IMG/VR virus record: IMGVR_UViG_3300032007_000002
Direction: 5' to 3' (one strand)
From: a virus
Lineage: Duplodnaviria > Heunggongvirae > Uroviricota > Caudoviricetes
DNA: 64,000 nt
Shown here: one piece after another, positions 1 through 61,878 of the stretch
Numbering within the stretch: the stretch's first letter is position 1
How the letters are laid out: each line of letters opens with the position of its first letter
Position numbers and translations under genes: made by a program
Notes under the pieces: generated by a model
Database searches by the model: none
The model's input: only the letters and a program-made list of their open reading frames with translations
Told to the model about the DNA's origin: nothing

Positions 1-597
1 CAGGTCTGCGACCGCTTCAGGCTCGACCCCAAGTGCAGGGAAGAACTCGTCGCGGGCCTCGAAAAGTACGACAGGGCCATGTGCGAGGCCGAGGGAAGGC
101 TCCTCCCCCGCGAGTGGCTCATCAGGAACATCAGGAACGGCGAACACCTCACCGAGAACGGCAACTGGGGCGTCAACGTCCCCGCAAAGCGCTTCCCGTC
201 CCACGACAGCGCATACGGCGCATACCGCGAACTCTTCGGGGAAGGCGGGGAAGGATGGGACAAGGGCTACCGCATCGAGGAGGCCCCGGAATACCGCTAC
301 GAGAGCGACTCCCACATAGGCGAACTCGTCAAGAAGGCCAGGGAGCTCGGCGGACGGATGGACGAGGGCAACTGGGCGGAAATCGACAGGGACGACGCGG
401 AATGGATCGCCCACGACCTCGCGGAAAACTGCGCCGACATGGAAAGGCGCCTGACGACCGGGACCAGGGACACCGGCTTCGACGACGCGGTCGGTGCGCT
501 CGAGCGTTCCATCGCGAAGGCGGAGAAGATCCTCTCCCGCAGGGATGCCCGGGAGAAGAACCCATACGCCCGATATGAAATCGTAGGGAAGCGGTAA
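1..597 (+). CDS. hypothetical protein, 5'-truncated at window edge (frame open from nt 1)
   Basis: High-GC ORF in frame 1 with no stop from position 1; ORF track 79..597. Confidence 0.5.
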   Translation, partial: QVCDRFRLDPKCREELVAGLEKYDRAMCEAEGRLLPREWLIRNIRNGEHLTENGNWGVNVPAKRFPSHDSAYGAYRELFGEGGEGWDKGYRIEEAPEYRYESDSHIGELVKKARELGGRMDEGNWAEIDRDDAEWIAHDLAENCADMERRLTTGTRDTGFDDAVGALERSIAKAEKILSRRDAREKNPYARYEIVGKR

Positions 598-694
598 GCA
601 AGGCCGCATTGACTACCCTTGACGCATAATTTTTATTTTTTATATTTTTATCCAGACCGCCTAGTTTGGGCGGCCGTAACAAAGGATAAAAATA

Positions 695-1078
695 ATGAAT
701 TCACCAACATTCGACATTGTTATGCTTATCGTCAACATCGTGATTGCGATATCAACGGCCGCAACCGCAGCATTAGTTATCATTAAAATGATAGCCGACC
801 GTCGTGAAAAACTTGACAAATATGAACGTGCTGTTACCGAAGGGTATGTATATGATAGCGGTGTTAAGACATTTGCGGGCATGTGTCATCACTTCATATT
901 ATTTTCCATTACGAGACACACTGATGGGAAAAGTTACGAATATGGGTTCCATAAAGTAGTCCGCGATTACAATATTAGTAACCCCAAAGAATTTCTTAAA
1001 TTTGTGGTCAACCATCAAGCGGAAACTGACGATCCATTCACATTTGACCAAGCGAAGCATCTGTTGAAGCTGAAATAA
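695..1078 (+). CDS. hypothetical protein with N-terminal transmembrane helix
   Basis: ORF track; hydrophobic N-terminus (IVMLIVNIVIAISTAATAALVII); first gene of the AT-rich island. Confidence 0.5.
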   Translation: MNSPTFDIVMLIVNIVIAISTAATAALVIIKMIADRREKLDKYERAVTEGYVYDSGVKTFAGMCHHFILFSITRHTDGKSYEYGFHKVVRDYNISNPKEFLKFVVNHQAETDDPFTFDQAKHLLKLK

Positions 1079-1096
1079 CAAACAGATATCGACTGT

Positions 1097-1127
1097 TTCG
1101 AAGACGACCAATGTTGGCCGTCTTTTT
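1097..1127 (+). terminator. putative rho-independent terminator
   Basis: Hairpin aagacgacc...ggccgtctt followed by ttttgcg just after the stop at 1078. Confidence 0.4.
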
Positions 1128-1236
1128 TGCGTAAGGATGTACCCATCCAAAGTGCTACGGGACCGATCTAGCGACCTAAAGTATCCTCCGATCCGTATGA
1201 AACTATAAACTATTGAATGTTCGCTAACAATCTGTA

Positions 1237-1839
1237 ATGAGGTGTCCTTTGGCAGAGCCTTTAATGCGATGGGATTTAATCAACGCCTATATCAAGAAAT
1301 ATGGGTTCAAATCGTTCCTTGAAATCGGTCACGACCAGGGCATTGCGTTTAACCGAGTTGAAATTGACCTGAAAGAGTCGGTGGACCCGGATGAGGCAAC
1401 TCACCCGACTTATGTGATGTCCAGCGATGATTTCTTTGAAAAGTATTCTACCAAATACGACATCATTTTTATTGACGGCTTGCACGAACATGCACAAGTT
1501 GACCGCGACATAAAAAATGCGTTGGTACATTTGAATAAGGGTGGCGTTATAGTTATGCACGACTGTCATCCAATTTCGGAGGAATGCCAACGGCATACTT
1601 TCGTATATCCCGGAGGTGAATGGACCGGTGATTGCTGGAAAGCCTATGTTAAAAACCGTGCTTCACTCCCGTATGATATGTATGTATGGGACCATGACTG
1701 GGGGTGCGGTGTCATAAATACTAATATGCAACGCAGTTCCGAATTACCACAATTACCAACAATTATGGCAGACATGGAATATGCGGATTTCGTTGCACAT
1801 CCAGAATGGATGAACTTTGTTACCGAATTGCCAATGTAA
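1237..1839 (+). CDS. class I SAM-dependent methyltransferase (TylF/MycF-like O-methyltransferase fold)
   Basis: Motifs FLEIGHDQG (glycine-rich SAM loop) and IIFIDGLHEH (IDGDH-like); ~200 aa. Confidence 0.55.
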   Translation: MRCPLAEPLMRWDLINAYIKKYGFKSFLEIGHDQGIAFNRVEIDLKESVDPDEATHPTYVMSSDDFFEKYSTKYDIIFIDGLHEHAQVDRDIKNALVHLNKGGVIVMHDCHPISEECQRHTFVYPGGEWTGDCWKAYVKNRASLPYDMYVWDHDWGCGVINTNMQRSSELPQLPTIMADMEYADFVAHPEWMNFVTELPM

Positions 1840-1909
1840 TATAAACCCTGATGCCACATTTGGGGTCTTTTGTTGCGTTCTGAATGACTAGATCTATAAA
1901 CTGATAATT

Positions 1910-2659
1910 ATGAGCGTAGTTATAAGTTTGACAAGCCACACCAAGGAACGGCTGAAAGATGTCGGCCAATATTTGTTTGCGAGCGTGTTCCGGTATAAGT
2001 TGAAGGGTGTTCATGTAGTTTTGACCCTTTACAAGGACGATGTGCCGAACATGCCGGAAGACCTTAAAACGATGGTCAAGATGGGGTTGGTGGAGCTTAT
2101 CGTAGCCAATCAGAATTTGCGATGCCACTTAAAATACTTCTACGCGATGAAGAAATATCGTGATGTTCCAATCATCACGATTGATGATGATTCGGTCTAT
2201 CCTCCGCAAATGGTTCCCGATTTACTTGCTGCTATGGAGAAATACCCTGGTTGTATCATCGGGCGAAGCGGGTGCCTACTGGATGTAAACAAGACCTACA
2301 TCCAGAACTTTTGCATCAACTCCGGGGTTGACAATATCAGCAAATGGAATGGTCACGCGGACGAACCCCGTATGGATTTGAATGTGGAAGGATATGGTGG
2401 CATCTTGTACCCGCCGGACATCTTGAAGGTTTCAGACGATTACATACCGGAAATTCTTGAAACCCCGCGTGCAGATGACATCTACCTGATGGTCATTGAG
2501 AACCGGTTGAAGATAAAGAGGGTTGTGCCTTATTACCCATATCCTAAACTACTCGTATGCACGAAAGGCTTTGATGCAATCTCAACCAAGCGGGACAATG
2601 TTCAAATGATTGATTCGGTTGTTCAACAATTTAAAGGAGATTTAGTCAGCAATCCATAA
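1910..2659 (+). CDS. putative glycosyltransferase (paralog of 3399..4043)
   Basis: Shares ISLTS..R, PIITIDDD (DxD-like) and DL.TM..GL.E with 3399..4043. Confidence 0.45.
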   Translation: MSVVISLTSHTKERLKDVGQYLFASVFRYKLKGVHVVLTLYKDDVPNMPEDLKTMVKMGLVELIVANQNLRCHLKYFYAMKKYRDVPIITIDDDSVYPPQMVPDLLAAMEKYPGCIIGRSGCLLDVNKTYIQNFCINSGVDNISKWNGHADEPRMDLNVEGYGGILYPPDILKVSDDYIPEILETPRADDIYLMVIENRLKIKRVVPYYPYPKLLVCTKGFDAISTKRDNVQMIDSVVQQFKGDLVSNP

Positions 2660-2670
2660 GCGAGTGTCAG

Positions 2671-3357
2671 ATGAATTTAAATGATTTAACTTTATTAACG
2701 GTATCATTTAACAACAATTTGCTAACCGGAATGATGATTAAATCGTTCTTTAAGCAAGTGGGTTTAGTTAAGGTCGTCATTGTAGATAACGGCACCAGCA
2801 TTGCCATTGGTGACTCTTTTAAACGGGTTTTCACTGTTGTAGATAATATGCACCAGAAAATTACTGGCGATTATCGGCAATGTTCAAAAAATCATTGTTC
2901 AACCATTGATTATGCACTGAAACATTTAATAATGACCGACTGGGTTTTGCTAGTCGACAATGACATATTGTTTAAGCCACAAACAAAGGAATACTTAAAA
3001 CTGTTTGATTGTGCAAAATATGATTGCGCCGGGGAAATTGGTTGGGATGACGCTCCGCCGGCCAGGTTATTCCCGTATTTTTGCTTAATCAATGTTCGTA
3101 AATTTAATGACGCCAAGTTGTCGTATTTCGATGATAATAGATGTATTGGTCCCGGAAGCAAAGAGGATGGTCCAAGAGGGGTAAATACTTCTTGCTGGTA
3201 TAAAGATACAGGATGCTCATTTTATGAAGATATTAAAGATAGCTGGGCAATAAACGAAATCAAATTGACTTCATACATTGCACACATGAAATGCACCGGC
3301 GAAGGAAATAGAGATATAGCAGGGTTTTTAAAACAAAATCAAATGCTATGGAAATGA
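2671..3357 (+). CDS. family 2 (GT-A) glycosyltransferase
   Basis: LTLLTVSFNN, VVIVDNGT, LLVDNDILF motifs typical of GT2. Confidence 0.65.
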   Translation: MNLNDLTLLTVSFNNNLLTGMMIKSFFKQVGLVKVVIVDNGTSIAIGDSFKRVFTVVDNMHQKITGDYRQCSKNHCSTIDYALKHLIMTDWVLLVDNDILFKPQTKEYLKLFDCAKYDCAGEIGWDDAPPARLFPYFCLINVRKFNDAKLSYFDDNRCIGPGSKEDGPRGVNTSCWYKDTGCSFYEDIKDSWAINEIKLTSYIAHMKCTGEGNRDIAGFLKQNQMLWK

Positions 3358-3398
3358 GTATATACTCTGTGACGGTAATTTAGATTCAAAGGAGTGTC

Positions 3399-4043
3399 AT
3401 GTCTAACACCAATGCCATCATATCCCTCACATCATGGAAAGCTCGCATTACAACAGTAGGGCTTACCCTATTCAGCCTATTAAAATGCTGTCCAGGATTT
3501 CGTATTGTATTATGCTTATCAACTGAGGAGTTTCCCGGGAAAGAAGCCGAATTACCTAACGATTTGCGGACAATGCTCAGTGCCGGCCTGTTTGAAATTT
3601 TATGGACTGGCAAAAACATTAAATCATTTAAAAAATGGATATTTACTGCACAGCGTTATCCAACTATTCCCATCATCAGCGCCGATGATGATTGTATTTA
3701 CCAACGCAACTACGCGAATGAATTGTATCAGGCTTGGATAAAAAACCCCTTATGTTGCTATACTATACATAAATGCCCGGTATCGGGATTTCAGCATGGA
3801 CCAGCTACATTATATCCACCTGGCGTCGCATCCAACTTTATGATTGAGCATTTAACCGCAAATGTCTTAAGCACTGCACACGATGATGTGTTTTATGGTA
3901 TGTGTTTAAATAAACTAAACATACCAATAATTGAAATCAGTAAAACTGTGCCGTATGTATTTCATGACACCACCGATGCGTTGAGCGATGGGATAACCAT
4001 GAATTTATTTAAATCCATGGAAATCATTTCGCGTGAAATATAG
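3399..4043 (+). CDS. putative glycosyltransferase (paralog of 1910..2659)
   Basis: IISLTSWKAR, PIISADDD, DLRTMLSAGLFE align with 1910..2659. Confidence 0.45.
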   Translation: MSNTNAIISLTSWKARITTVGLTLFSLLKCCPGFRIVLCLSTEEFPGKEAELPNDLRTMLSAGLFEILWTGKNIKSFKKWIFTAQRYPTIPIISADDDCIYQRNYANELYQAWIKNPLCCYTIHKCPVSGFQHGPATLYPPGVASNFMIEHLTANVLSTAHDDVFYGMCLNKLNIPIIEISKTVPYVFHDTTDALSDGITMNLFKSMEIISREI

Positions 4044-4383
4044 CGCCACCTACCGACCCGCACACTTCCACCCACGCCGCGGGAATGGCCTTCCTGTACC
4101 TAACGCACCGTTTCCGCCTGCCCATGACGACGTCCGGCTCCAGTGCATCCCGGTCCAGCAGGTCCCGTCTGACGCGCAGCAGGACTTCCCCTACATAGAT
4201 CCGCGGAGTAGGCGCCAGGAATACGCAGGGATAGATTTCCCTGGCCTCCCTCGGCCGGCGCAGGTTGAACTCCTCGTAGTGGTCCCGGTAGCACTTTCCG
4301 ATGCCCGGGACCAGGCCGTCCCGCAGGATCCCCGGCAGGTTCTCCTTACATGTCCCGTGGTAGTAGTATCTATTTCGCGACAT
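4024..4383 (-). CDS. minimal ADP-ribosyltransferase-fold protein resembling the Tpt1/KptA C-lobe (YHGT motif)
   Basis: MSRNRYYYHGTCKENLPGILRDGLVPG matches the Tpt1/KptA LYHGT...I...GL motif (H-Y-E ADP-ribosyltransferase superfamily); ORF track 4024..4491 trimmed to internal ATG at 4383. Confidence 0.4.
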   Translation of the reverse strand: MSRNRYYYHGTCKENLPGILRDGLVPGIGKCYRDHYEEFNLRRPREAREIYPCVFLAPTPRIYVGEVLLRVRRDLLDRDALEPDVVMGRRKRCVRYRKAIPAAWVEVCGSVGGAIFHAK

Positions 4384-4594
4384 CTTCGGTGGTCCTGCGT
4401 GCCCTCTCCTCGAACTCCACGTTAGGGTCGAACGCGGGATAGTTGCCGATTTCCGCGTCGGGGACTTTCTGCCTGAACGTGAGCCGGGCATACTGCCGGC
4501 AGGCCGGACAGTAGTCGTTTACCCACGACATGAGGCTGTCGTAGGCTATCAGCTTCTTGCACTTTCCGCACCTGTATAGACGGTTCCACAGCAT
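4370..4594 (-). CDS. small zinc-ribbon protein
   Basis: CGKC...CPAC pairs; overlaps the downstream gene start by 14 nt (operon). Confidence 0.45.
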   Translation of the reverse strand: MLWNRLYRCGKCKKLIAYDSLMSWVNDYCPACRQYARLTFRQKVPDAEIGNYPAFDPNVEFEERARRTTEDVAK

Positions 4595-4607
4595 GGGCGC
4601 CTCCTGT

Positions 4608-5018
4608 TCAGTCCACCGGGTCGAGGTCGCTGGCCCAGCACCCGAGGGCGTCGATGATTTTCCGCCCCTTGAAGCAGACCTTGACCTCGTACATCTCGTT
4701 TCCGGGGATATACCACTTGATTTCGTCCCCGTCCATCCGGTTCACCAGCATAGTCGAGCCGATACCCTTGGTAGCCAGTGCCTTTTTGAGCAGCAGAAGC
4801 GCGTTGCGGAGGGCGTTCTGGACGGCGATATATTTTCCATTCATTATCGGGCCGAGCGCGCCTGAACGAATGCTGCCGAGCGTGCCGTCGTTGTCCCTGG
4901 GGCCGACAGCCTTGACTAGATCGTCGTCGGCCTTCTTGTAGACCGCGTATTCCTCCGGGCAGGCCTTGGCGAGGACGCTTTCCGGGACTGAGTAGTATTT
5001 GGGGATTTCCTGTGGCAT
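4608..5018 (-). CDS. hypothetical protein
   Basis: ORF track; coding-like composition. Confidence 0.5.
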   Translation of the reverse strand: MPQEIPKYYSVPESVLAKACPEEYAVYKKADDDLVKAVGPRDNDGTLGSIRSGALGPIMNGKYIAVQNALRNALLLLKKALATKGIGSTMLVNRMDGDEIKWYIPGNEMYEVKVCFKGRKIIDALGCWASDLDPVD

Positions 5019-5140
5019 GTCAAGTCCTTTACATGTTTGCTTCGATTATGCCGAGAACGCTGCAGATGAATACTGCGGCAACGAACCATACGATAACCCG
5101 TCCGAGCATGTCCAGCCCGGAAAAATACTTATCAAGCCAA

Positions 5141-5819
5141 TCAGTCTTTCTCACGTGGCGGCTCCCACTTGCAGATGTAGTAGTTGTATGCAGCGTCCAG
5201 GTTCTCGACGAGCAGGTGCCTGGGGTTCGGTACGGCGATGTCGTAGAACTTGCCCTTCTCCGCGTCGTAGCAGGAAACCGACACGCCGTCCACGCCGAAC
5301 GAGCTGTCCATCAGCGGCAGCCCGTCCTTGACATAGTGTTCGAGGAGCTTGCCGAGCGGGTACACGCTGAGCCACCCGCCGGTGAAGTATGACAGGCGCT
5401 TGTAGTTGACGAGGATTGCGAGCCGGATCAGGTCGGTCGGGGACAGCTTCCCCTGCTTCCTGCCGGACACGGTGGCAATTCTTTGCCCGTCGCGGCAGAG
5501 GGTGAACGAGACGGTGTAGAACGACGGTGTGTGGACTTCCCGTTTGAGCGCTTCCACGACGCTGTCGTCAATCGGGGACGGGACGAACTTCCCGTCGTCC
5601 GCCTTCTGTAAGAGAATTACGCCGTCGACGAATGCCGTTTCCAGGCTAAACGCCTTGATGTCGGTACCGTCCGACACAATCAGGACGGGATGGCCATACG
5701 GGTCGGGCACCATGTCATGGACTGTCCCGGTGAATGTGGAATAGTCGATGCCGACACGGTACTTGACCGTGACCGTGTCGCCCACGCCTATTTTCGGAAG
5801 ATCTTTTGCCGTGTTCATT
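5141..5819 (-). CDS. hypothetical protein, tandem paralog of 5829..6566
   Basis: Start set at MNTAKDL (ATG 5819); upstream part of ORF 5141..6517 is a low-complexity out-of-gene extension; shares SFYTV.F...RD..RI.TVSG.R.G..SP.DLI.LAIL..YK.LS with its neighbour. Confidence 0.55.
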
Positions 5820-5828
5820 TCATTCCTT

Positions 5829-6566
5829 TCAGTCGAGACTGCGGAAGTAGTATTTGTAGGCCGCGTCGAGGTCCTTGATGCCGAGCTGTTCAAGCGACGG
5901 GACGGGGATTTCGTAGAACTCGCCTGTCCTGGCGTCGTAGCCGGAAATCGAGATGCCGTCAACGGTGAATCGTGCGTACTTGTCGTAGAAGTCCCCGTCG
6001 AGGTAGAAACAGAGGATGCTGTCGAGCCTGCCCAGCCATTCGCCGTCGTAGCAGGAAAGCTCCTTGTAGTGTTCCAGGATGGCGAGCTTGATGAGCTCGT
6101 CCGGGGACGGCTGCCCCGGTCGCTTGCCGGACACTGTAATGCGGTCGGCATCGCGCTGGTCAACGCTGAAAGTGACCGTATAGAAGGACTGCGGCGGGGC
6201 CTTCTTCTTGAGCATGTCCACGAACTCGGTGGAGAGCTTGTAGACGGAGCCTGCCGGTTCAGTTTCCTTGAATTTCCGCGCCTTGGCCTTCTTCGGGCTT
6301 TCGTAGCACGGGACAGGTTCTTCGATGACGCCGAACGCGGCATACTTGCCGAGGTCATAGACCCGGTATTTCGGTCCGCCGAGGGCGACGCGGCAGAACG
6401 TGGAGCCGTTGGCGTCCCACGAGGCGTCCGCCGTGCCGACGAACACCGGTTCGCCTTTCGGGGTCGGATCAAACAGCTTGAACGAGCTCCGTTCAAACAG
6501 TGCGATGCGGTCGCCATGTTTCGGCCGGTAATTTCTTTCTGTAAGTTTCAGTTTTTGTTTCTTCAT
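5829..6566 (-). CDS. hypothetical protein, tandem paralog of 5141..5819
   Basis: ORF track; C-terminal 150 aa align with the downstream gene. Confidence 0.55.
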   Translation of the reverse strand: MKKQKLKLTERNYRPKHGDRIALFERSSFKLFDPTPKGEPVFVGTADASWDANGSTFCRVALGGPKYRVYDLGKYAAFGVIEEPVPCYESPKKAKARKFKETEPAGSVYKLSTEFVDMLKKKAPPQSFYTVTFSVDQRDADRITVSGKRPGQPSPDELIKLAILEHYKELSCYDGEWLGRLDSILCFYLDGDFYDKYARFTVDGISISGYDARTGEFYEIPVPSLEQLGIKDLDAAYKYYFRSLD

Positions 6567-6571
6567 GGTTT

Positions 6572-6940
6572 CTACAGCTTTTGTGTCGGGAATTTCCCGG
6601 GGAACAGTCTATACTTGATATAACCCGCCAAGAACGGCTCGTTGTCTATACGTTCAAAAATCTCGGCAACGTGGTATACGTCGCACTCCTCAATTTTGCG
6701 CGACAGGCCTTCGAGGTGCGGTTTATCGCCGGAAACCTTAAAATCGGGAAGTCCGAACACCCTGATATATACGTTATTTCCGGGAATCGGAATTTCCGTA
6801 ACGCTATCGCTGTCGCTGTCGGACCATACGCTGATATAAGAATTTCCCGTAGCGCAATGGCACCTGACACGGTTGCATTTTTTCAAGTCGATGACCACAA
6901 TATCCGTGGCCTGCTGCGTATACAGTTTCACCGTAATCAT
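6572..6940 (-). CDS. hypothetical protein
   Basis: ORF track. Confidence 0.45.
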   Translation of the reverse strand: MITVKLYTQQATDIVVIDLKKCNRVRCHCATGNSYISVWSDSDSDSVTEIPIPGNNVYIRVFGLPDFKVSGDKPHLEGLSRKIEECDVYHVAEIFERIDNEPFLAGYIKYRLFPGKFPTQKL

Positions 6941-6957
6941 AGTTTCTCCATTTAGGG

Positions 6958-7197
6958 TTAGTTCATCCCTTCTGGCGCCCCGTTCAACCCAAGGGCCTGT
7001 TTCAGCCTGAGAATTTCGGCGTCTTTACTAGCAATAAGAGAGTCTACATCTTCTTTGCTGTAAAACTTCTCATCTTCGCTTACGCTGCTATACTCGATTC
7101 CGACGATAGCCACGGTTTCGCTCGAATCATCAATCTGCCCGATTTCAAACGAGTATTCACGCAAACCGTACTTGTTCGTCGTTTTAGACTTTTTCAT
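6958..7197 (-). CDS. hypothetical protein
   Basis: ORF track. Confidence 0.4.
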   Translation of the reverse strand: MKKSKTTNKYGLREYSFEIGQIDDSSETVAIVGIEYSSVSEDEKFYSKEDVDSLIASKDAEILRLKQALGLNGAPEGMN

Positions 7198-7236
7198 TGG
7201 CCTAATCCCTCTTAGAGCCCCCTTCGGACGCCCCGG

Positions 7237-7707
7237 TCAACCGTCGATGCCGTAGGTTTTCTTGAGGCCATCCAGCTGGGCTGCGGTTTGCTTGTATACC
7301 TTTACCATGTCGAGGGCGTAGAGGATATGGTTGGCAATTCCCTTCAGTGTGTGTATCGGGCCCCAGGAGGTGGCTTCGCCGCTGAAATAGTCGAGGATTC
7401 CCCATGACGGGGTTTTCTCCGTTTCCCCGTCTTCATCGCGGTGGTTGGCGAATTGCATGGCGAGCACGATCCCGTCGAAGTCGTCTCGGGCTTCGTTGTA
7501 CGACATGCTGAAATCGATTCGCATGTCTTCGAAATCGGTCGATACATAACCTTCGACGGTAATCGGGTTTGCTACGTTCAGTCGCACGGACTTGTTTTCT
7601 ACGGTAAATCGGGACTTGTCACATACCAGCGGGGCAAGGAGGTCGATTACGTCACCTTTATTGTTATCAGCATCGAGGATAGCCTGTTTTGTTGTATAAT
7701 TGCTCAT
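7237..7707 (-). CDS. hypothetical protein
   Basis: ORF track; promoter-like motif at 7755-7769 upstream. Confidence 0.55.
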   Translation of the reverse strand: MSNYTTKQAILDADNNKGDVIDLLAPLVCDKSRFTVENKSVRLNVANPITVEGYVSTDFEDMRIDFSMSYNEARDDFDGIVLAMQFANHRDEDGETEKTPSWGILDYFSGEATSWGPIHTLKGIANHILYALDMVKVYKQTAAQLDGLKKTYGIDG

Positions 7708-7754
7708 TTGAGTGTCCTTTTGTTATATATTTGTTCTATGTATTGTTCTTTTGA

Positions 7755-7769
7755 TGAAATATAGCAAAA
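7755..7769 (-). promoter_or_regulatory. conserved phage promoter-like motif (gene-oriented TTTTGCTATATTTCA)
   Basis: tgaaatatagcaaaa on the + strand, ~45 nt upstream of the minus-strand start at 7707. Confidence 0.55.
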
Positions 7770-7777
7770 ACCCGCTA

Positions 7778-8173
7778 CTACACGAGCGCCTGCAACGCCT
7801 TCGCAACGCACCATGTGAACAGCAGCATCATGGTGAAGTCATAGACGGCCAGGACCATTGCGATGCGGGTCCCCTTCGCGTAAGCGATTACGGAGGCAAG
7901 GGTTTCCACGGCGCTCGCGAGGACCATCATGGCCGCGACTACGATGCTGGCGGGTTCCCCGATGAACAGCCCGGAGACAGCCAGGAGGGCGATTGCGGTA
8001 CGTATGCCAAGCGCGATACCGAACGCCAGGTCGAAGTTCTCGGGAGAAACGCGTGCCGGGTCTTCCGGCTCCTTCTCCTCGTTTGCCCGTTTCATGCTGC
8101 GGTAACTGGCGATATCCCTGACGATCCTGGCAGCTTCGTAAACGATTGTGATGATGAACAGGTAGATAAGCAT
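7778..8173 (-). CDS. multi-pass membrane protein
   Basis: Several hydrophobic segments; motif copy at 8189-8203 upstream. Confidence 0.5.
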   Translation of the reverse strand: MLIYLFIITIVYEAARIVRDIASYRSMKRANEEKEPEDPARVSPENFDLAFGIALGIRTAIALLAVSGLFIGEPASIVVAAMMVLASAVETLASVIAYAKGTRIAMVLAVYDFTMMLLFTWCVAKALQALV

Positions 8174-23053: not shown

Positions 23054-23247
23054 TCCCGAATCTCCTCCGGGATGTCATGATACAGCAGGGACAACTGCGG
23101 GTCCCACGCGGCGTTCATCAGCGCATCCATCCCTTCCGGCCACTTGGCCCTGATGTTGAGCAGGCGGTTCCGTGCCTTCCTGGCCTTTTCAATCCTGCGC
23201 AGCTTCTTCACGCGCTTGCGCTCGCGTTTCCTTGCAATGTTTGGCAT
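23050..23247 (-). CDS. small basic protein
   Basis: ORF track; Lys/Arg-rich. Confidence 0.35.
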   Translation of the reverse strand: MPNIARKRERKRVKKLRRIEKARKARNRLLNIRAKWPEGMDALMNAAWDPQLSLLYHDIPEEIRE

Positions 23248-24424
23248 GATATTGCTCCATGGCTGTCAATATTTCCTTGTCGAACTCGTCGCGCACTTCC
23301 TTGAATAGAGGCTCAGACGATTGTCTAGTTTCGGGCGTGTCCGGCACTTCGGACGGCGTTCCGTGGCTAATCAGCATGTTTTGCCCCCTGTACGGTTCCG
23401 GGCGTTCGGCCCACGCAAGAACAATGCTGTCGTCATAGTAGTATTCGCCGGTCCCGTCGTCCCATTGCGGGTTCTCCCTGCTCCCGTAGAATATCGCGGA
23501 GCAGGTCTCCCTGCTGGTCGCGGAATGTTCAATGGTGACAAGGACACGGGCGCCCATGTCCGGGAGACGTTCCGAAGTCGGGATCCATTCTATTCCGCGG
23601 GAACGCTGGTGCTCTTTGGACGGTACCGAGACGAAAATCTCGCCCTCGTAGCGTTGCCTGAACGCAAAATACCCGATACGCTGGCGTTCGGTGGACGCCC
23701 AAACATCGTCGAGGCGCGGGTCGTCCTTCCATGTATGCTCGGACACGTGGAACGGGATCGTGCAGTTCTCCCAGAACGTGAGGTTCGCCGGACGCTGCCT
23801 GCCGAAGCGGTGCGCACCGCCGAGGACAAGTTTCGCCCTTGCGCGTGCTTCGTAGCCGGGGAACACTACGTTGGTGAACCCGCGCATCGCCCTGTCCGTC
23901 AGGCAACCGAAGTCGTCGAGGAACAGGAAGTCCCAACCAATGCCGCGGGTATTCTTTTCCAGTTCCGCGCGGGCGCAGAATACGCTCCCGTTGCAGAACC
24001 GTATCTTCTGCGCCGTCCACTCGGTCACGCCGGGCTGCATCCAGTACGGGATGCGCAGGTACATCTCCCGGACGATGGACTTGAAGTAGCCTTCCGCGCC
24101 CTTGCGCTTGGGTGCCATGTAGAGCGCGGCGTATTTCGGCTGGAACATGCAGGCCCACAGCATGTAGCCGAGGACTAGGGTGGTATAGCCGGCCTGCCGG
24201 TACCAGTCCCCCTTAATCAGCTTGTTGTCGCGGATCGCGTCGAGTTCCTGCACCTGCCTGGGCCGGAGGGGGAACTTTACCGCGCCGAGCACGGAATGGA
24301 TGTAGAAGTAGTTTTCGAGGAAGTATCTCGGGTCGTGCTTGCACTTCTCGATTTCGAGCAGCTGGGCCGGTTCGAGCCGGATCTCTTCTCCCTCGCCACG
24401 GAGGTCAGGATTGCGCCTATACAT
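23189..24424 (-). CDS. terminase-large-subunit-like ATPase domain protein with non-canonical Walker A and C-terminal DUF551-like domain
   Basis: FPLRPRQVQELD...YRQAGYTT (RQxGKT pattern with K replaced by Y)...DFLFLDDFG (Walker B); C-terminus LPDMGARVLV...YYDDSIVLAWAERPEPY resembles DUF551. Confidence 0.45.
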   Translation of the reverse strand: MYRRNPDLRGEGEEIRLEPAQLLEIEKCKHDPRYFLENYFYIHSVLGAVKFPLRPRQVQELDAIRDNKLIKGDWYRQAGYTTLVLGYMLWACMFQPKYAALYMAPKRKGAEGYFKSIVREMYLRIPYWMQPGVTEWTAQKIRFCNGSVFCARAELEKNTRGIGWDFLFLDDFGCLTDRAMRGFTNVVFPGYEARARAKLVLGGAHRFGRQRPANLTFWENCTIPFHVSEHTWKDDPRLDDVWASTERQRIGYFAFRQRYEGEIFVSVPSKEHQRSRGIEWIPTSERLPDMGARVLVTIEHSATSRETCSAIFYGSRENPQWDDGTGEYYYDDSIVLAWAERPEPYRGQNMLISHGTPSEVPDTPETRQSSEPLFKEVRDEFDKEILTAMEQYHAKHCKETRAQAREEAAQD

Positions 24425-34122: not shown

Positions 34123-34128
34123 AGCGAG

Positions 34129-34200
34129 AGCCGGGTGCAGGGCTCGAACCTGCGACCTGAGCTTTACGAAAGCCCTGCTCTACCGCTGAGCTAACCCGGC
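34129..34200 (-). tRNA. tRNA-Thr (anticodon CGT)
   Basis: Manual fold: acceptor GCCGGGT/ACCCGGC, D GCTC/GAGC, anticodon loop TTCGTAA, T-loop TTCGAGC. Confidence 0.7.
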
Positions 34201-34203
34201 ATA

Positions 34204-34276
34204 AGCCGTCGGCCGGCATCGAACCAGCGACCGGCGCATTACAGGTGCGCTGCTCTACCAACTGAGCTACGACGGC
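34204..34276 (-). tRNA. tRNA-Thr (anticodon TGT), unusual C at position 33
   Basis: Manual fold: acceptor GCCGTCG/CGACGGC, anticodon stem GCGCA/TGCGC, loop CCTGTAA. Confidence 0.6.
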
Positions 34277-34279
34277 ATA

Positions 34280-34352
34280 TCGGGGTAGCAGGGCTCGAAC
34301 CTGCGACATCCTGCTCCCAAAGCAGGCGCTCTACCATCTGAGCTACACCCCG
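34280..34352 (-). tRNA. tRNA-Pro (anticodon TGG)
   Basis: Manual fold: anticodon stem CCTGC/GCAGG, loop TTTGGGA, T-loop TTCGAGC. Confidence 0.7.
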
Positions 34353-34362
34353 GAAAGTCTAG

Positions 34363-34435
34363 TCGGCGTAGCTGGACTCGAACCAGCGACCCCATGCTCC
34401 CGAAGCATGTGCGCTACCAACTGCGCTATACGCCG
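34363..34435 (-). tRNA. tRNA-Pro (anticodon CGG)
   Basis: Manual fold: acceptor CGGCGTA/TACGCCG, anticodon stem CATGC/GCATG, loop TTCGGGA. Confidence 0.7.
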
Positions 34436-34444
34436 AAAAAATCG

Positions 34445-34518
34445 TGATGCCGGAATGAGTCGAACATTCGACCGGCCGTTTAGAAGACGGCTGCTCTGTC
34501 CAACTGAGCTACGGCACC
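34445..34518 (-). tRNA. tRNA-Arg (anticodon TCT)
   Basis: Manual fold: anticodon stem GCCGT/ACGGC, loop CTTCTAA, T-loop TTCGACT. Confidence 0.65.
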
Positions 34519-34522
34519 GTAG

Positions 34523-34596
34523 CGGGACCAGCGGGGCTCGAACCCGCGATTTCCGGCGTGACAAGCCGGCGTTCTAGCCAACTGAACTATGGCCCC
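34523..34596 (-). tRNA. tRNA-Asp (anticodon GTC)
   Basis: Manual fold: anticodon stem CCGGC/GCCGG, loop TTGTCAC, discriminator G. Confidence 0.7.
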
Positions 34597-34601
34597 AGTT
34601 A

Positions 34602-34674
34602 TACGGGCAGTGGGTCTCGAACCCACGACTCCCATATTAAAAGTATGGTACTCTACCATCTGAGTTATACCCGT
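34602..34674 (-). tRNA. tRNA-Lys (anticodon TTT)
   Basis: Manual fold: anticodon stem CCATA/TATGG, loop CTTTTAA, T-loop TTCGAGA. Confidence 0.7.
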
Positions 34675-34728
34675 GAATCAAATTCGCGAGGTATTACGTT
34701 TTCGTATGTTCATATTCGTACTCCTTAG

Positions 34729-34802
34729 TCGATACGGCTGGACTCGAACCAACAACTACCGCCTTATCAGAGCGGCGTGCTAACCAATTACACCACGCAT
34801 CG
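34729..34802 (-). tRNA. tRNA-Ile (anticodon GAT)
   Basis: Manual fold: anticodon stem CCGCT/GGCGG, loop CTGATAA, T-loop TTCGAGT. Confidence 0.65.
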
Positions 34803-34816
34803 AAGTTGATTGTTAG

Positions 34817-34889
34817 TCCCGGTGGCAGGGCTCGAACCTGCGACCAACCCCGTATGAAGGGGCCGCTCTACCAACTGAGCTACGCCGGA
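34817..34889 (-). tRNA. tRNA with CAT anticodon (Met, or Ile2/lysidine type)
   Basis: Manual fold: loop TTCATAC, T-loop TTCGAGC; acceptor stem has one C-A mismatch. Confidence 0.55.
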
Positions 34890-34896
34890 ATGTTAG

Positions 34897-34967
34897 TGCT
34901 CCTATCTGGACTCGAACCAGAACCCACGGATTAAGAGTCCGCTCGTCTACCATTAGCATATAGAAGC
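34897..34967 (-). tRNA. tRNA-Lys-like (anticodon CTT), weak D-stem
   Basis: Good acceptor, anticodon (GCGGA/TCCGT, loop CTCTTAA) and T arms; D-stem TGCT/GACG pairs poorly. Confidence 0.45.
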
Positions 34968-34974
34968 ATTTTAG

Positions 34975-35045
34975 AGCGCCTATCCGGGGTCGAACCGGAA
35001 CCAACTGCTTGGAGGGCAGTGATGCAGCCAATACACCATAGGCGC
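34975..35045 (-). tRNA. tRNA-Gly (anticodon TCC)
   Basis: Manual fold: anticodon stem ACTGC/GCAGT, loop CCTCCAA, T arm TCCGG-TTCGACC-CCGGA. Confidence 0.6.
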
Positions 35046-35054
35046 GTAATTTCG

Positions 35055-35127
35055 AGCATCTGGCCGGCTTCGATCCGGTGACCTCATCCATGGCAAGGAT
35101 GCGCTCTACCAACTGAGCTACAGATGC
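35055..35127 (-). tRNA. tRNA-Gly (anticodon GCC), atypical T-loop ATCGAAG
   Basis: Perfect acceptor GCATCTG/CAGATGC; anticodon stem CATCC/GGATG, loop TTGCCAT. Confidence 0.6.
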
Positions 35128-35131
35128 GTAA

Positions 35132-35203
35132 CAGCCCCCTGACGCTTCGAACGCCATCCTGCAGATTTGGAGTCTGCGATGCTACCAGTCACACCCGAGG
35201 GCT
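35132..35203 (-). tRNA. tRNA-Trp-like (anticodon CCA), G at position 8 and weak D-stem
   Basis: Anticodon stem GCAGA/TCTGC, loop CTCCAAA, T arm TGGCG-TTCGAAG-CGTCA, acceptor AGCCCTC/GGGGGCT. Confidence 0.45.
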
Positions 35204-35317
35204 AAGGGGTGGGACATGTGCTGACTGTCCCGGCGCCGGGAGGAGCGGGCGACATTACTCGAGTTGTCCGTCCGACGGCTCCCGGCGCTTACCAGCGAAT
35301 GCAGAAGGGGTCCCGGT

Positions 35318-37292: not shown

Positions 37293-38393
37293 CTACGAGC
37301 AACATATCTCAAAGGTAGATGCCCCTACCTTACATAAATTTATTGCGGCATTCCTATCCCTATCATGTTCTGCACCACACTTAGGACATATCCAATGTCT
37401 AATGGATACATCCTTCAATTCGTGGTTCTGATAACCACACTCGGAGCATAACTGGCTAGATGGGTACCACTTGTCTGCGTACATGACTGTCTTACCAGTC
37501 TTATGTGCTACATATTCAATGATATTCAAGAAAGTATTGAATCCGAAGTCGTACATGGATTTCTTATACTTCTTGGATAGATTAGCTAGGTCTAGCGTCT
37601 CAAACACCATCACATCGTAGTCACGGCACATCTGCCGTGCCAACTTCCAGTGCATATCGGAACGCTGGTTGGCTACCTTCTCGTGTAGCTTCTGCAATGT
37701 ACGCAGCGAACCTCGCTTTCCTTTAGACCTACGGTATTTCTCCGATAGGTTCCTTAATGAATTGAGGTTCTTCCGCAATAGCTTAGGCATACTGCAACCA
37801 TCACCGTTAGAGGAAACCAAGAAGTCGTGCAGACTGAAGTCGAAACCAACGATTTCACCCGATTTAGTCCACTCTTCGTATGCTACTTCTTGCTCAACAA
37901 CGATGTATATGTAGAAGCCGTTGCTCTTGCGCTTGACGGTGAGCGTTTTAATCTTGCCGTCGAAATCCCTGCTATTCCAGTAGGGAAAGTCTTTCTTGCC
38001 TATCCTAACTCTATTGCTGTCATGAAACTTATATCCACATTGCTTTGTCGTGAACGACCTATACTTTGCAGATTTCTGGAAATGTGGCGGATTGGTCTTC
38101 TTGCCAACCTTCAAGTTCGAGAAGAACAACCGATATGCTCGGTCTATCCTGTCCGTGATATCCTGAATAGCTTGAGACGGAACCTCATTCCAGTCTGGGT
38201 ATTGCTTCTTCAACTTGGTTAAGTGCTTCTGCAACTGATACTTATTCAACATCTTATGGTAGATGCCGTAGTACCTACGATGCAGAGCAATGCAGTGGTT
38301 GTATATCTGTCCAGCAACTACCAGAATACCGTCAAGATACCTCAAAGCATCCCTATTGTACAGCTTGTACTTGTATGTCTTCAATTCAACCAT
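37293..38393 (-). CDS. tnpB: IS605 OrfB / TnpB RNA-guided-endonuclease-family protein
   Basis: C-terminal QLCSECGYQ...HWICPKCGAEHDRDRNAAINL (RuvC-III plus zinc finger); 366 aa. Confidence 0.85.
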   Translation of the reverse strand: MVELKTYKYKLYNRDALRYLDGILVVAGQIYNHCIALHRRYYGIYHKMLNKYQLQKHLTKLKKQYPDWNEVPSQAIQDITDRIDRAYRLFFSNLKVGKKTNPPHFQKSAKYRSFTTKQCGYKFHDSNRVRIGKKDFPYWNSRDFDGKIKTLTVKRKSNGFYIYIVVEQEVAYEEWTKSGEIVGFDFSLHDFLVSSNGDGCSMPKLLRKNLNSLRNLSEKYRRSKGKRGSLRTLQKLHEKVANQRSDMHWKLARQMCRDYDVMVFETLDLANLSKKYKKSMYDFGFNTFLNIIEYVAHKTGKTVMYADKWYPSSQLCSECGYQNHELKDVSIRHWICPKCGAEHDRDRNAAINLCKVGASTFEICCS

Positions 38394-40035: not shown

Positions 40036-40617
40036 CGTGTTCGTCCTCCTTCGCGGCTTCCTGCATCTGTTCGTGGTATGCGCGATAGGAAGTGAGGAAA
40101 TTTTCCGCATAGATTGACGCGCGGACAAGGTCCGGGTGAAGACCGGGGATAAGGGAAATTTCGCGCAGGACGGTGGTCGCGTAGTCGATTTCCCCGATCT
40201 TGTTGTCGGTCCCCCAGCTCATCGCCGTGGCCACGGTGTTCTCGATGCGGGTGCGGACGATTTCCGGGTCCGGGCAGTTGCCGTTGAGGAAGGCGCACAT
40301 CGCACGGGCTTCTTCCTCGTCCTGGTAGAACCGGCGGTCGAAACAGTGGTTGTCCATCCAGTTCTTCGCGCACTTCAAAGTCGGCTCGTCGCGCTTGAGC
40401 GTGTAGGGCTTGAACTTGAACTTTCCGCCGGCACCGACATAGATGTAGTACACGGTGGCTTCCTTGATCTTGTTCTTCACCGCGTTCTCCAAGTCGAACG
40501 GGGTAATGGGGCCGCGTTCTCGGCATGCCTGGATGAAGGCTTCCGAGTTGATTTTCGGCAGCCTTGCCAGGCGTTCGCGAAGTTCACTGATCGATGCGTA
40601 TTCGCTCATCATCTTCT
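40028..40617 (-). CDS. hypothetical protein
   Basis: Start MMSEYAS after AGGAGAAG; from track ORF 40028..40771. Confidence 0.5.
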
Positions 40618-42630: not shown

Positions 42631-43154
42631 TACATTCTGCCTTTGCTGCCGGCTTCGATAATTTCTTCGATGAAACGGAGGCGGAGGCCCCTGGCCTGCT
42701 CGATTGCCTTGGCGACACGTTCGTCCTTGGAAAGGCAACTCGGGTCGACATAGGAGTTACGGACGTTCTCCAGGTAATACGCGTCGCCGAGAGTGTCACC
42801 GAGGTTCTTGCCGACGTAACTGGCGTTGATTGCCGCCTTGATGGCGCACGCGATGTTCTTGGCAAGGAGCTTTGACGAATGGGTGCCGGTGCCCTTGTTG
42901 GTATTGATCGCGGCATAGCGCTTCGCATCGCGCTGGATACGGAGTGCGGCCATGGCGAGAGCCTTGATGTCCATTTCGGGAGTAATATCCGTCGATGCGT
43001 TGGAAACGTCGATTCCCGGAAATTCGCTCGGGAGGAACGGCCAGTCGGCAGCGAACGGCGGGGGTTGGAGTTCGCCTTCATACGGCTTCTTTTCGGTTAC
43101 GACGAGCTTTGACAGCGGGACACATACGGTTTCATTTTCGTTTTCGTTTGACAT
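42630..43154 (-). CDS. hypothetical protein
   Basis: ORF track; motif at 43169-43184 then AGAGGT SD. Confidence 0.5.
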   Translation of the reverse strand: MSNENENETVCVPLSKLVVTEKKPYEGELQPPPFAADWPFLPSEFPGIDVSNASTDITPEMDIKALAMAALRIQRDAKRYAAINTNKGTGTHSSKLLAKNIACAIKAAINASYVGKNLGDTLGDAYYLENVRNSYVDPSCLSKDERVAKAIEQARGLRLRFIEEIIEAGSKGRM

Positions 43155-58926: not shown

Positions 58927-58929
58927 CCC

Positions 58930-59187
58930 TTACTTGGTTTCCTCGGTCTGTGCGCGGACATCGCCGGCTTCCCCGTTGCTTACCTTCACGAGGGTGGTCG
59001 TGCCCCCGTTGATCCAAATCTGGCGGATTACACGCGCGGTGCTGAACAGGAACACGGCGAACACGAGCACGTAGAGGGCGCGGACGATATTTCCGTGCAT
59101 TGCGGCATTCTTGGCGGTAGCCGTGTACACGCTAAGTTGCGTTTCCAAGAATTTCAGCAACTTGTCTGACCGAAGCAAATTCTTCAT
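58930..59187 (-). CDS. small membrane protein
   Basis: Start MKNLLRSDK after GGAG; hydrophobic LYVLVFAVFLF. Confidence 0.35.
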   Translation of the reverse strand: MKNLLRSDKLLKFLETQLSVYTATAKNAAMHGNIVRALYVLVFAVFLFSTARVIRQIWINGGTTTLVKVSNGEAGDVRAQTEETK

Positions 59188-59881
59188 TTCCAAACTCCTT
59201 TTCACAGAAAACGTCAATGGCCCCGGTACGCCTGCGGTATTCGGCGAGCGAATGGAGCCACCCCCTGCCGCAGTGGCCGAGGTGGATGATGGCCGGGGCG
59301 CTCAGGTAGAGCGTCTCCAGGACCCTGGTCGGCATGTTCTGGCGCCTGAACACGACTTCGGCGCCCTCGTGGGAGAGGAACGCCGAGAGGTCGGCAAACA
59401 CCCGTGCCGTGCCGGTAAAGACTGTATGGCAGACGAGGGCAACCTTCCTGAACCGGCTGGCGTCGAAAGCCTTCCGAAGGGCGTCGAGCGAGTTTTCCCG
59501 CAGAGCTCCCCCGATTACCACGTCGTAGTCCATCGCCGTCGGCAGGTGGACGAACCGGTCAAGGTCGAGTGGGAACGACGGGAGGTCGATGCACTTCTTG
59601 CCAAAATCCGGGTGTTCAAAACCGCCAAGGCACAGGACGTGCTTGGCGAGCAGCGCAGCCGGCTTGTAGTTGGGGAACCAGTCGTGCAGAACGGCGATGC
59701 GCGGGCCGTACCAGCCTCCGGGAACCTTCTGGATGTTGCCGTCCGCACACTGCACCACGACCGGCGCACGGGACGACATGTCGAAATATCTCGTATCGTG
59801 GAGATAGGACGCGACCGATGTCGCGAACATGTTCGTCTTGGAACACTCCTGGCCTATCTCCTGGCGGATGAACTGGATCAT
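59132..59881 (-). CDS. hypothetical protein, translationally coupled to the upstream glycosyltransferase
   Basis: ATGA overlap with the glycosyltransferase stop; alternating hydrophobic/Gly pattern (possible nucleotide-binding fold), function unknown. Confidence 0.45.
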   Translation of the reverse strand: MIQFIRQEIGQECSKTNMFATSVASYLHDTRYFDMSSRAPVVVQCADGNIQKVPGGWYGPRIAVLHDWFPNYKPAALLAKHVLCLGGFEHPDFGKKCIDLPSFPLDLDRFVHLPTAMDYDVVIGGALRENSLDALRKAFDASRFRKVALVCHTVFTGTARVFADLSAFLSHEGAEVVFRRQNMPTRVLETLYLSAPAIIHLGHCGRGWLHSLAEYRRRTGAIDVFCEKEFGNEEFASVRQVAEILGNAT

Positions 59882-60990: not shown

Positions 60991-61007
60991 GGTCAAAATA
61001 TACAAAT

Positions 61008-61859: not shown

Positions 61860-61862
61860 GAC

Positions 61863-61878
61863 CAAAATATAGCAAAAA
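61863..61878 (-). promoter_or_regulatory. conserved phage promoter-like motif
   Basis: caaaatatagcaaaaa; minus orientation TTTTTGCTATATTTTGGTC then ATG. Confidence 0.55.

Follow-up and report, generated by a model that had tools for sequence, protein, structure and literature searches.

The window considered here is a 64-kb stretch of DNA (64,000 nucleotides) from IMG/VR record IMGVR_UViG_3300032007_000002, a virus of the Caudoviricetes. Near its left end lies an island of low guanine-plus-cytosine (GC) content that encodes a methyltransferase and three glycosyltransferases (GTs): gtA, gtB and an enzyme of 228 amino acids (aa). Position 1 is the first letter of the window, and L with a number labels a related contig. 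The window represents about a third of the phage genome; statements on genome content refer to that part and to its extensions in relatives. The island consists of the orf127 unit, a promoter, open reading frame (ORF) and terminator, followed by a four-gene, co-oriented and tightly spaced operon at 1237-4043. These elements and the two flank genes are as follows.

79-597, plus strand: left flank gene, which starts before the window (211 aa in the identical contig L112); GC content at third codon positions (GC3) 0.85, backbone composition
598-1184, plus strand: orf127 unit of 587 bp, with promoter-like site, ORF and terminator hairpin
619-646, plus strand: promoter-like site, TTGACG-16-TATATT
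695-1078, plus strand: orf127 ORF; gene callers start it at 722, giving 118 aa
1100-1129, plus strand: terminator hairpin and T-run, GAAGACGaCCAatgtTGGcCGTCTTTTTT
1237-1839, plus strand: S-adenosylmethionine (SAM)-dependent O-methyltransferase, Methyltransf_24 (PF13578; Pfam 2.3e-10, 41.7 bits against a cut-off of 26.3)
1910-2659, plus strand: gtA, GT-A fold, DxD motif D92-D93-D94, GT45-like
2671-3357, plus strand: third GT, 228 aa, GT-A fold, DxD-like D96-N97-D98, ED at 186-187
3399-4043, plus strand: gtB, a shorter paralogue of gtA
4024-4491, minus strand, probably 4024-4383 (119 aa from M37, the gene-caller start): right flank, a small ORF resembling Tpt1 and the ADP-ribosyltransferase (ART) fold; backbone GC

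The GC content of 600-4043 is 0.408, compared to 0.557 for the rest of the window. All other 3.4-kb stretches average 0.555 (standard deviation 0.025, minimum 0.476), which places the island at z = -5.8. Both borders are sharp within 100 bp; measured in steps of 100 bp, GC drops at 598 (0.59 to 0.38) and rises again at 4044 (0.40 to 0.66). GC3 is 0.36-0.54 in the island genes vs 0.70-0.87 in most backbone genes. An initial annotation of this DNA had found the ORFs in the same places, had seen the composition drop at ~600 and recover at ~4030, and had named codon usage as a check; all of this holds. The island sits at a convergent junction, with the upstream gene (79-597) on the plus strand and the downstream genes (4024 to about 9611) on the minus strand. 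The convergent overlap of the last gene with the Tpt1-like gene, also described initially, amounts to 20 nucleotides (nt), gtB ending at 4043 and the Tpt1-like ORF at 4024. No flanking direct or inverted repeats of the kind that mark site-specific insertion were found at the island.

Allelic cassettes in a conserved slot

Six further contigs of the same lineage (L011 and L119-L123) carry the locus; five span it and one, L121, ends inside the insert. The flanks of L011 are 93-95% identical to the window at the nt level. Homologues of the left flank gene lie directly left of the slot in all six (73-97% aa identity), and those of the right flank proteins lie right of it in L119, L120, L122 and L123 (78-94% aa identity). 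In L011, a 534-bp segment (4074-4607) holding the Tpt1-like ORF and the next small gene is deleted. Between the flank genes, every spanning relative has a different low-GC gene set. The complete inserts are 2.8-5.8 kb with a GC content of 0.37-0.41, against 0.58-0.62 for the flanks. Gene calls in the related loci come in part from a simple longest-ORF script. The slot contents, with MT for the methyltransferase and GT-A for the 228-aa GT, are:

Window: orf127, MT, gtA, GT-A, gtB
L011: 355-aa GT-like gene, MT, gtA, GT-A, gtB
L119: gtB-like, unannotated, DUF1919-like, unannotated
L120: gtA-like, GT34-like, DUF1919, inverted gtB-like, unannotated
L122: gtB-like, TOD1-like, unannotated, inverted MT, two unannotated
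L123: 355-aa gene (97% identical to that of L011), four families otherwise found in jumbo phages of 29-35% GC, two unmatched ORFs
L121 (insert incomplete): three unannotated, then a 396-aa DUF1919-like protein

The window and the five spanning relatives include no empty site. The position is a glycan cassette slot, fixed in place but hypervariable in content, which the island fills at present in this jumbo phage of ~220 kb. As its counter-case to an island, the initial annotation had named homologues in the same context at matching GC in all related phages; the context is shared, but the inserts are lower in GC than the flanks and differ from one another in gene set. A full-text literature search found no description of a conserved, always filled jumbo-phage slot with allelic, mosaic, low-GC glycan cassettes from a pool that phages of widely differing GC have in common with one another and with a bacterial chromosome.

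The cassettes are also exchanged beyond this lineage, and jumbo phages of much lower GC use the same gene pool. The segment 2118-4045, comprising the 3' part of gtA, the 228-aa GT gene and gtB, is found again in L109 and L110 with 94% nt identity. The flanks of these two contigs have nothing in common with the 64-kb window even by tblastx, and the homology ends 2 nt past the gtB stop codon. gtA alone is 89% nt identical in L012, amid other neighbours. The horizontal acquisition proposed from the composition is therefore correct as exchange, since a near-identical segment sits amid unrelated flanks, but not as simple presence or absence, since the slot is filled in all five further spanning relatives. 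Window and L011 have diverged to the same degree in the island (94% nt) and in the flanks (93-95% nt). The present cassette is therefore older than the split of the two, and the swap of orf127 for the 355-aa gene and the loss of the Tpt1-like gene are later.

In all 10 phage lineages compared, cassettes have a GC content 4-15 points below that of their backbone, and this includes phages of ~29-30% GC. A gtA copy on a Fibrobacteraceae chromosome is an exception, at 3 GC points above its surroundings. A single low-GC donor is ruled out by the deficit in every phage lineage. Low GC is thus a standing property of the gene pool, not just the trace of one transfer; it does set off the island, as initially annotated, but is not the sole mark of one recent acquisition. 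Bacterial O-antigen loci are likewise low in GC as a standing property.

The four operon genes are under purifying selection. The ratio of nonsynonymous to synonymous substitution rates (dN/dS) is 0.07-0.19 in all four in comparisons with L011 and with L109/L110 (gtA, 0.07; gtB, 0.08-0.12; the 228-aa GT, 0.07-0.12; the methyltransferase, 0.08 vs L011), and the only stop codons are terminal. gtB is intact and 93-95% identical at the aa level in L011, L109 and L110.

The orf127 product is small, with one N-terminal hydrophobic helix (Kyte-Doolittle hydropathy, KD19, 2.46), and is predicted to be a single-pass membrane protein. It has no family match in Pfam, PHROGs or NCBIfam. In L011 the unit is exchanged for the 355-aa GT-like gene, which is also present in L123; orf127 is a separate variable unit of the slot, outside the conserved operon. 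The membrane protein that the initial annotation had placed in the cassette thus has its N-terminal helix but not its cassette membership. A promoter upstream of 695 and a terminator at 1097-1127, which it had named as features to look for, correspond to the promoter-like site at 619-646 and to GAAGACGaCCAatgtTGGcCGTCTTTTTT at 1100-1129. A terminator scan did not flag the latter although hairpin and T-run are plain in sequence and fold, and the intergenic region as a whole folds no more stably than shuffled sequences (z = -0.56). Of the flank genes, the left one has no Pfam or PHROG match. The likeness of the right one to Tpt1 is limited to a 27-aa motif, YHGT...NLP...GL.P (RNA 2'-phosphotransferase PDB 9ld3, E 0.0036; NCBIfam, 0.033).

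Enzymes of the operon

gtA and gtB are paralogues, as initially annotated, with 33% identity over 118 aa (BLASTP E 2e-18). The S-L-T-S...R and I-T-x-D-D-D motifs are invariant in 35 of 35 family members; in the 35-member alignment the invariant residues are S6, T8, R14, K75, Y83, D92-94, G161, Y167, P168 and D189, and residues 188-192 of gtA read [A/D]-D-D-[I/F]-Y. gtB keeps the S-L-T-S...R and DDD motifs but is missing ~35 residues of the loop after strand 121-123, so its acceptor is likely to differ from that of gtA.

The AlphaFold (AF2) model of gtA shows a GT-A fold at a mean confidence (pLDDT) of 93.9. In a Foldseek search of the Protein Data Bank (PDB), the top matches are the GlcNAc-transferase domain of PmHS2 and KfiA (8viw, 8vh7, 5z8b), with SpsA and EXTL2 ranking next; TarP is not among the first 50. 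Among viral proteins, the best matches in structure are a GT of an actinophage and GTs of several giant viruses. A profile of the gtA family, compared to PDB sequences, matches PmHS2 residues 303-526 (E 7e-8) and KfiA (E 1e-4) with 224 of 240 profile positions covered, and the I-T-x-DDD-x-x-YP segment of the family aligns to the DxD site of PmHS2. Two marks of GT45 are present, a GT-A fold with DxD and sequence similarity to the founding members (KfiA, PmHS). On the model and on the structural and profile matches to PmHS2 and KfiA, gtA and gtB are called GT45-like and are probably retaining; gtA in particular is probably a retaining alpha-hexosaminyl or hexosyl transferase. The Pfam GT2-type score of gtA is 19.2 bits, below the cut-off of 23.3, and gtB has no match in Pfam, PHROGs or NCBIfam. 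The GT45-like label now extends to the whole family, about 7,000 clusters, where Pfam offers only a sub-threshold GT2 match and PHROGs and NCBIfam offer none.

The 228-aa GT also has a confident AF2 model (pLDDT 92.3), and nearly all of its top 50 Foldseek PDB matches are GT-A transferases, including B3GalT5, LARGE1, WrtF, COLGALT1 and SpsA. Its profile matches the N-terminal GT domain of TagF (E 8e-4). The initial assignment to GT2 is right about the GT-A fold but not about the family; the protein scores below every GT2 threshold, the best match being PF13641 at 15.5 bits against a cut-off of 27. It is provisionally placed in no CAZy family. All three GTs are predicted to be soluble, and their isoelectric points (pI) are about 6.5.

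The methyltransferase is soluble and acidic (pI 4.9; family median 5.2). It was initially described as TylF-like, which was not borne out: Methyltransf_24 is the only family that Pfam returned at E<=0.1, and no TylF match was among the results. There are 480 metagenomic homologues, with precomputed PF13578 domains. The other contexts inspected (L011, L014 and L015/L016) are all three phage GT cassettes. The best match of its profile in PDB is 6g7d (E 0.0027), which we take to be the mycobacterial mannoside O-methyltransferase MeT1; the remaining matches are weaker and of mixed kinds. In cultured phages, the only matches are Cellulophaga phage proteins annotated as "DNA methylase" (31-40% identity over partial length). 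That label and the PHROG label "DNA methyltransferase" were judged unreliable because the protein is strongly acidic and O-methyltransferase-like. Its putative role is the methyl-capping of a sugar hydroxyl. The enzymes of the operon add members to superfamilies already known, GT-A/GT45-like and Methyltransf_24, and in its mode of action the cassette would resemble the glycan modules of other phages.

The gene families, the phage and its other genes

Close homologues of gtA in metagenomes number 114; a precomputed Pfam domain is missing from 112, and a functional name from all. Counted at E<=1e-3, the family extends to 7,014 representative clusters, and many of its proteins are multi-domain, with two or three copies. 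The phage contexts of gtA or the methyltransferase that were inspected are runs of small ORFs in 7 of 7 cases, on contigs of up to 428 kb, and in each the gene is part of a cassette with three to six glycan genes. Among the partner genes are Stealth_CR2, a small cytidylyltransferase, Glyco_transf_34, DUF1919, DUF4422, TOD1/MUCI70 and an FrhB-pyruvyltransferase fusion, and UDP-galactopyranose mutase (Glf) is found near the cassettes. Among 59 phage cassette proteins there is no polytopic membrane protein, flippase or polymerase, and each has at most one hydrophobic segment. Wzx, Wzy and ABC families were not found in the phage contexts examined, nor was an initiating phosphoglycosyl transferase in any of the cassettes.

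Reference bacterial genomes contain 440 gtA relatives of about 300 aa, 27-42% identical. In 12 bacterial loci with 110 neighbours, the neighbours include GT1 (13), GT2 (9), Wzx-type Polysacc_synt (5 plus 3), Wzy_C (4) and UDP-glucose dehydrogenase (3), in addition to pyruvyltransferase and acyltransferases. These Wzx/Wzy loci agree with the O-antigen/capsule-like ancestry proposed initially. Phage gtA starts directly at the first beta-strand; the bacterial homologues carry a basic, aromatic N-terminal extension of 40-60 aa, which is typical of membrane-associated transferases. The closest bacterial copy, 91% aa and 86% nt identical to gtA, lies on L017, a 218-kb contig of a Fibrobacteraceae metagenome-assembled genome (MAG). 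It is followed by a GT2-like gene and DUF1919, next to a C5 DNA methylase and an IS1595 transposase, and located among cadherin/CBM35, PL14 lyase and alcohol dehydrogenase genes. This near-identical gene marks recent traffic with a bacterial chromosome and offers a lead to the host, the basis of that lead being one gene in one MAG. The habitat suggested by the records of the bacterial relatives, the only basis for it, is herbivore gut or rumen. A further gtA relative is on L103 (IMGVR_UViG_3300028048_000110), a 91-kb viral contig in which the ORFs of 13 kb, read with the standard code, are no longer than 194 aa; the short ORFs suggest stop-codon reassignment.

The lineage of the window is T4-like. 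It encodes a gp30.3 homologue and a partial gp17-like terminase (PHROG E 1e-32; 25-32% identity to T4-like phages by tblastn). An identical copy of the protein at the right end of the window is on at least 24 contigs, including contigs of 103,856, 219,984 and 432,464 bp, which puts the genome in the jumbo range, probably at about 220 kb. Cultured phages in INPHARED gave no match by megablast (1-8000) or by tblastn (gtA, the 228-aa GT). Most window genes are ORFans, and a PHROG scan of 36 proteins neighbouring the island gave radical-SAM matches only. The following genes outside the island are considered.

5141-5818 and 5829-6566, minus strand: tandem ORFan pair with related C-terminal halves, ...SFYTV.F...SG.R.G..SP.[DE]LI.LAIL...
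23189-24424, minus strand: terminase large subunit, 411 aa, with a match (query residues 2-300) to no more than a part of gp17-like proteins
34128-35204, minus strand: 13 clustered tRNAs (Thr x2, Pro x2, Arg, Asp, Lys x2, Ile, Met, Gly x2, Trp)
37293-38393, minus strand: IS200/IS605-type TnpB transposase, in a low-GC patch
40609-42738, minus strand: EcoRI-type N6-adenine DNA methyltransferase with an intein (Pfam E 9e-70; weak Hint and LAGLIDADG matches)
52627-54537, minus strand: homing-endonuclease-like gene, 636 aa, GC3 0.45, directly downstream of NrdD
54662-57220, minus strand: NrdD
59878-61038, minus strand: Glyco_transf_7C/GalT-like GT, GC3 0.85, overlapping the D12 gene
61008-61865, minus strand: D12 Dam-type DNA methyltransferase

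The ORFan pair may be a tandem duplication adjoining the right flank of the slot, and the terminase gene is possibly split or interrupted. Other low-GC patches of the window hold the TnpB transposase and homing endonucleases. A different TnpB copy is at another site in relative L116 (8561-9850), and with different copies at different sites these elements appear to be active in the lineage. L115 and L117 have a 177-aa radical-SAM NrdG-like gene after NrdD, where the window has the 636-aa homing-endonuclease-like gene; the latter is therefore another mobile insertion that makes a low-GC patch. Besides NrdD, the window encodes a radical-SAM/4Fe-4S protein, probably the NrdD activase, and three DNA N-methyltransferases, one with an intein. 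The GalT-like GT and the D12 methyltransferase, with ClpP and HU, are kept in all relatives that cover the region (L113, L115-L118), and L114 ends within the GalT-like gene. This GT is a core gene and could itself be a DNA- or protein-glycosylating enzyme.

To the right of the window end, relatives have about 10 kb of phage-like genes without DNA-modification enzymes. The 16-kb scaffold L113 joins 5.5 kb of phage DNA (window 57522-62988, 98% nt identity) to a part with bacterial-type genes (L113 1-9433), namely MnmG, MnmA, Rrf2, flavodoxin, glutaredoxin and a CotH/LTD protein at a GC content of 0.57-0.68; the break is ~100 bp upstream of the HU gene. Chimeric assembly, a junction with the host and recombination are all conceivable origins of the join. 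As phage genes follow in four longer contigs, L113 is regarded as chimeric or unresolved.

Candidate targets and comparison with known systems

The best reading of the cassette is a self-contained cytoplasmic pathway that would make a short, methyl-capped glycan. The three transferases would act in turn in the cytoplasm of the infected cell on host nucleotide sugars. gtA and gtB would probably form alpha linkages, as GT45 enzymes do, and the product would be a short hetero-oligosaccharide on a non-lipid acceptor. The methyltransferase would O-methylate a sugar, probably the terminal cap. In the least certain step, virion proteins would receive a glycan coat that differs between relatives, and cassette swapping would be the phage counterpart of O-antigen/capsule serotype variation.

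The virion proteins of the phage are the favoured target, at somewhat less than even confidence. They are favoured by the self-contained pathway, the lack of an N-terminal extension, the never-empty slot, the structural matches to actinophage and giant-virus GTs, and the parts list of mycobacteriophage Corndog. Giant viruses glycosylate their own capsids with their own enzymes. The O-methyltransferase and three GTs of Corndog are of similar sizes to those of the island and were proposed to modify the capsid (PMC4351075), and PMC12619734 cites Freeman et al. 2023 for the glycosylation of mycobacteriophage virions. More tentatively, the slot may be a dedicated "serotype locus" of gut jumbo phages, always filled and always lower in GC than the backbone, in which interchangeable cassettes of soluble GTs with methyl, pyruvyl and sugar-phosphate enzymes would give a strain-specific virion glycan coat. 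As part of that same tentative proposal, the gene pool would be common to phages of 29% to 56% GC and host chromosomes. Several points weigh against a virion coat. Around the island neither capsid nor tail genes could be recognised, as ORFans make up almost all of the first 29 kb, and no acceptor was identified for the cassette enzymes. The Corndog cassette has no sequence homology to the island (hhalign probability 0.1-11%), which makes the parallel one of analogy alone. The missing N-terminal extension hints at solubility without proving it. Diversifying cassette replacement is equally expected for a restriction-facing DNA modification or a receptor-masking glycan. Furthermore, DNA glycosylation is a classic trait of T4-like phages, to which the lineage belongs, and the part inspected is about a third of the genome.

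Remodelling of the host envelope, possible but on balance improbable, would add a methylated side branch to lipid-linked polysaccharide, lipopolysaccharide (LPS) or teichoic-acid precursors of the host during infection. The branch would mask a receptor, that of the phage or of its competitors, leading to superinfection exclusion or sparing progeny from adsorption to debris; it is likened to prophage TarP and to the proposed role of "LPS genes" in large cyanomyoviruses. Since bacterial gtA homologues serve Wzx/Wzy surface-polysaccharide loci, the ancestral acceptors were lipid-linked oligosaccharides. Sibling cassettes carry Stealth, TagD-like cytidylyltransferase, pyruvyltransferase and Glf, typical of envelope polymers, the near-identical Fibrobacteraceae gtA speaks for traffic with the pool of a likely host, and comparable clusters in large T4-like cyanophages were read as host-surface modification (PMC12801897). 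However, none of the 59 cassette proteins is a flippase, a GT-C enzyme or polytopic, the phage enzymes are without the basic extension of their bacterial homologues, and an always-occupied slot suggests a core phage function over an accessory one. The 64-kb window shows no integrase or lysogeny module, and phages of the T4 type are virulent. Serotype conversion, raised in the initial annotation, is unsupported in its classic Gtr form (GtrA/GtrB/GtrC) because membrane components are absent; no cassette protein has more than one hydrophobic segment.

A somewhat less probable target is the phage DNA, on which the cassette would build a mono- to trisaccharide at 5-hydroxymethyl-cytosine or -uracil against restriction, varying under modification-dependent nucleases, as modelled on T-even phages and on the clusters that Pyle et al. 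described from metaviromes. The T4-like lineage fits. Validated phage GT-A DNA glycosyltransferases have R...DDD...EDY/F motifs (10.1101/2023.12.21.572611), which R14, D92-94 and the 188-192 motif of gtA match. GTs next to phage 5mYOX are annotated as CAZy GT45, and the methyltransferases as PF13578, PF13651 and PF01555 (10.1101/2025.08.14.668559); all four families are present in the window, and up to trisaccharides on 5-hydroxymethylcytosine are documented. Yet hypermodification pathways are usually clustered, and a TET/JBP or thymidylate-synthase-type hydroxymethylase (PF12851, PF00303) was not found among about 82 window proteins. A hydroxymethylase or dioxygenase was also not found in the ~10 kb beyond the right end in relatives, and none is listed within 7-10 kb of the cassettes in other phage lineages (for one of these, among the best 25 of 47 families). 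The top structural relatives of gtA are KfiA and PmHS2, with TarP outside the top 50, and KfiA, heparosan and GT45 do not occur in the supplementary tables of the DNA-glycosyltransferase paper (10.1101/2023.12.21.572611). The cassette proteins are neutral to acidic, the pI values of the GTs and the methyltransferase weighing against DNA as the target, and the Stealth, pyruvyl, Galf and DUF1919 partners are of polysaccharide type. It is very improbable that the island is passenger DNA, a recently captured bacterial fragment without a role for the phage. Its sharp compositional borders and the gtA copy in a bacterial chromosome would fit such a capture, but dN/dS is low in all four genes in two independent comparisons, the slot is filled in every spanning relative, and the genes are compact, co-oriented and free of internal stops.

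The known uses of phage GTs are DNA glucosylation, lysogenic serotype conversion and, more recently, virion glycosylation, and the locus fits none cleanly. In the sequence inspected, the cassette lacks the defining features of a Gtr-type conversion module, of a Wzx/Wzy locus and of a clustered DNA hypermodification pathway, and it is not homologous to the Corndog cassette. Corndog gp35-gp38 resemble it in parts and sizes, with a single small O-methyltransferase, three soluble GTs in the range of about 200-290 aa and no membrane components, but there is no detectable sequence homology, a relationship that was tried and rejected, and host phylum and phage type differ. With the DNA-glycosylation clusters (T4 alpha/beta-GT; the C5-MT/5mYOX/GT clusters of Pyle et al. 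2023/2024) it has in common the GT-A fold, the R/DDD/acidic-aromatic motifs, GTs in series and the diversity among phages. It differs in that no hydroxymethyl-base enzyme was found nearby, the top structural neighbours in PDB are KfiA/PmHS2, with TarP outside the top 50, and the partners are of polysaccharide type. With GT45 (E. coli K5 KfiA and the C-terminal GlcNAc-transferase domain of Pasteurella multocida PmHS1/2), gtA and gtB share the GT-A fold, the N-terminal S-x-x-S/T...R and the metal site I-T-x-D-D-D-x-x-Y-P. The identity is however 14-17%, the phage proteins are stand-alone and of about 245 aa, and their cassette is without a KfiC-type GlcA-transferase partner, UDP-glucose dehydrogenase or Kps export genes.

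Large T4-like cyanomyoviruses (P-SSM2, S-SCSM1, S-SCSM2R) also have many GTs and a TagD-like cytidylyltransferase in hyperplastic regions, but from other GT families and in phages of other hosts; to our knowledge, a single conserved slot with allelic cassettes has not been described in them. Bacterial O-antigen and K loci differ in being equipped with Wzx, Wzy, an initiating transferase and an exporter, which are lacking from the 3-6 kb slot in a viral genome, but they too have conserved flanks, a common gene pool and low-GC cassettes, mosaic and replaceable, in which GTs are combined with decorating enzymes. If the product is placed on the virion or the DNA, the cassette type would be a phage "serotype" marker for host range, defence evasion and shielding from immunity or proteases in the gut. 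At the population level, the locus combines conserved flanking genes, a slot that is always occupied, mosaic cassettes of low GC and genes each under strong purifying selection, a pattern known from bacterial surface-antigen loci.

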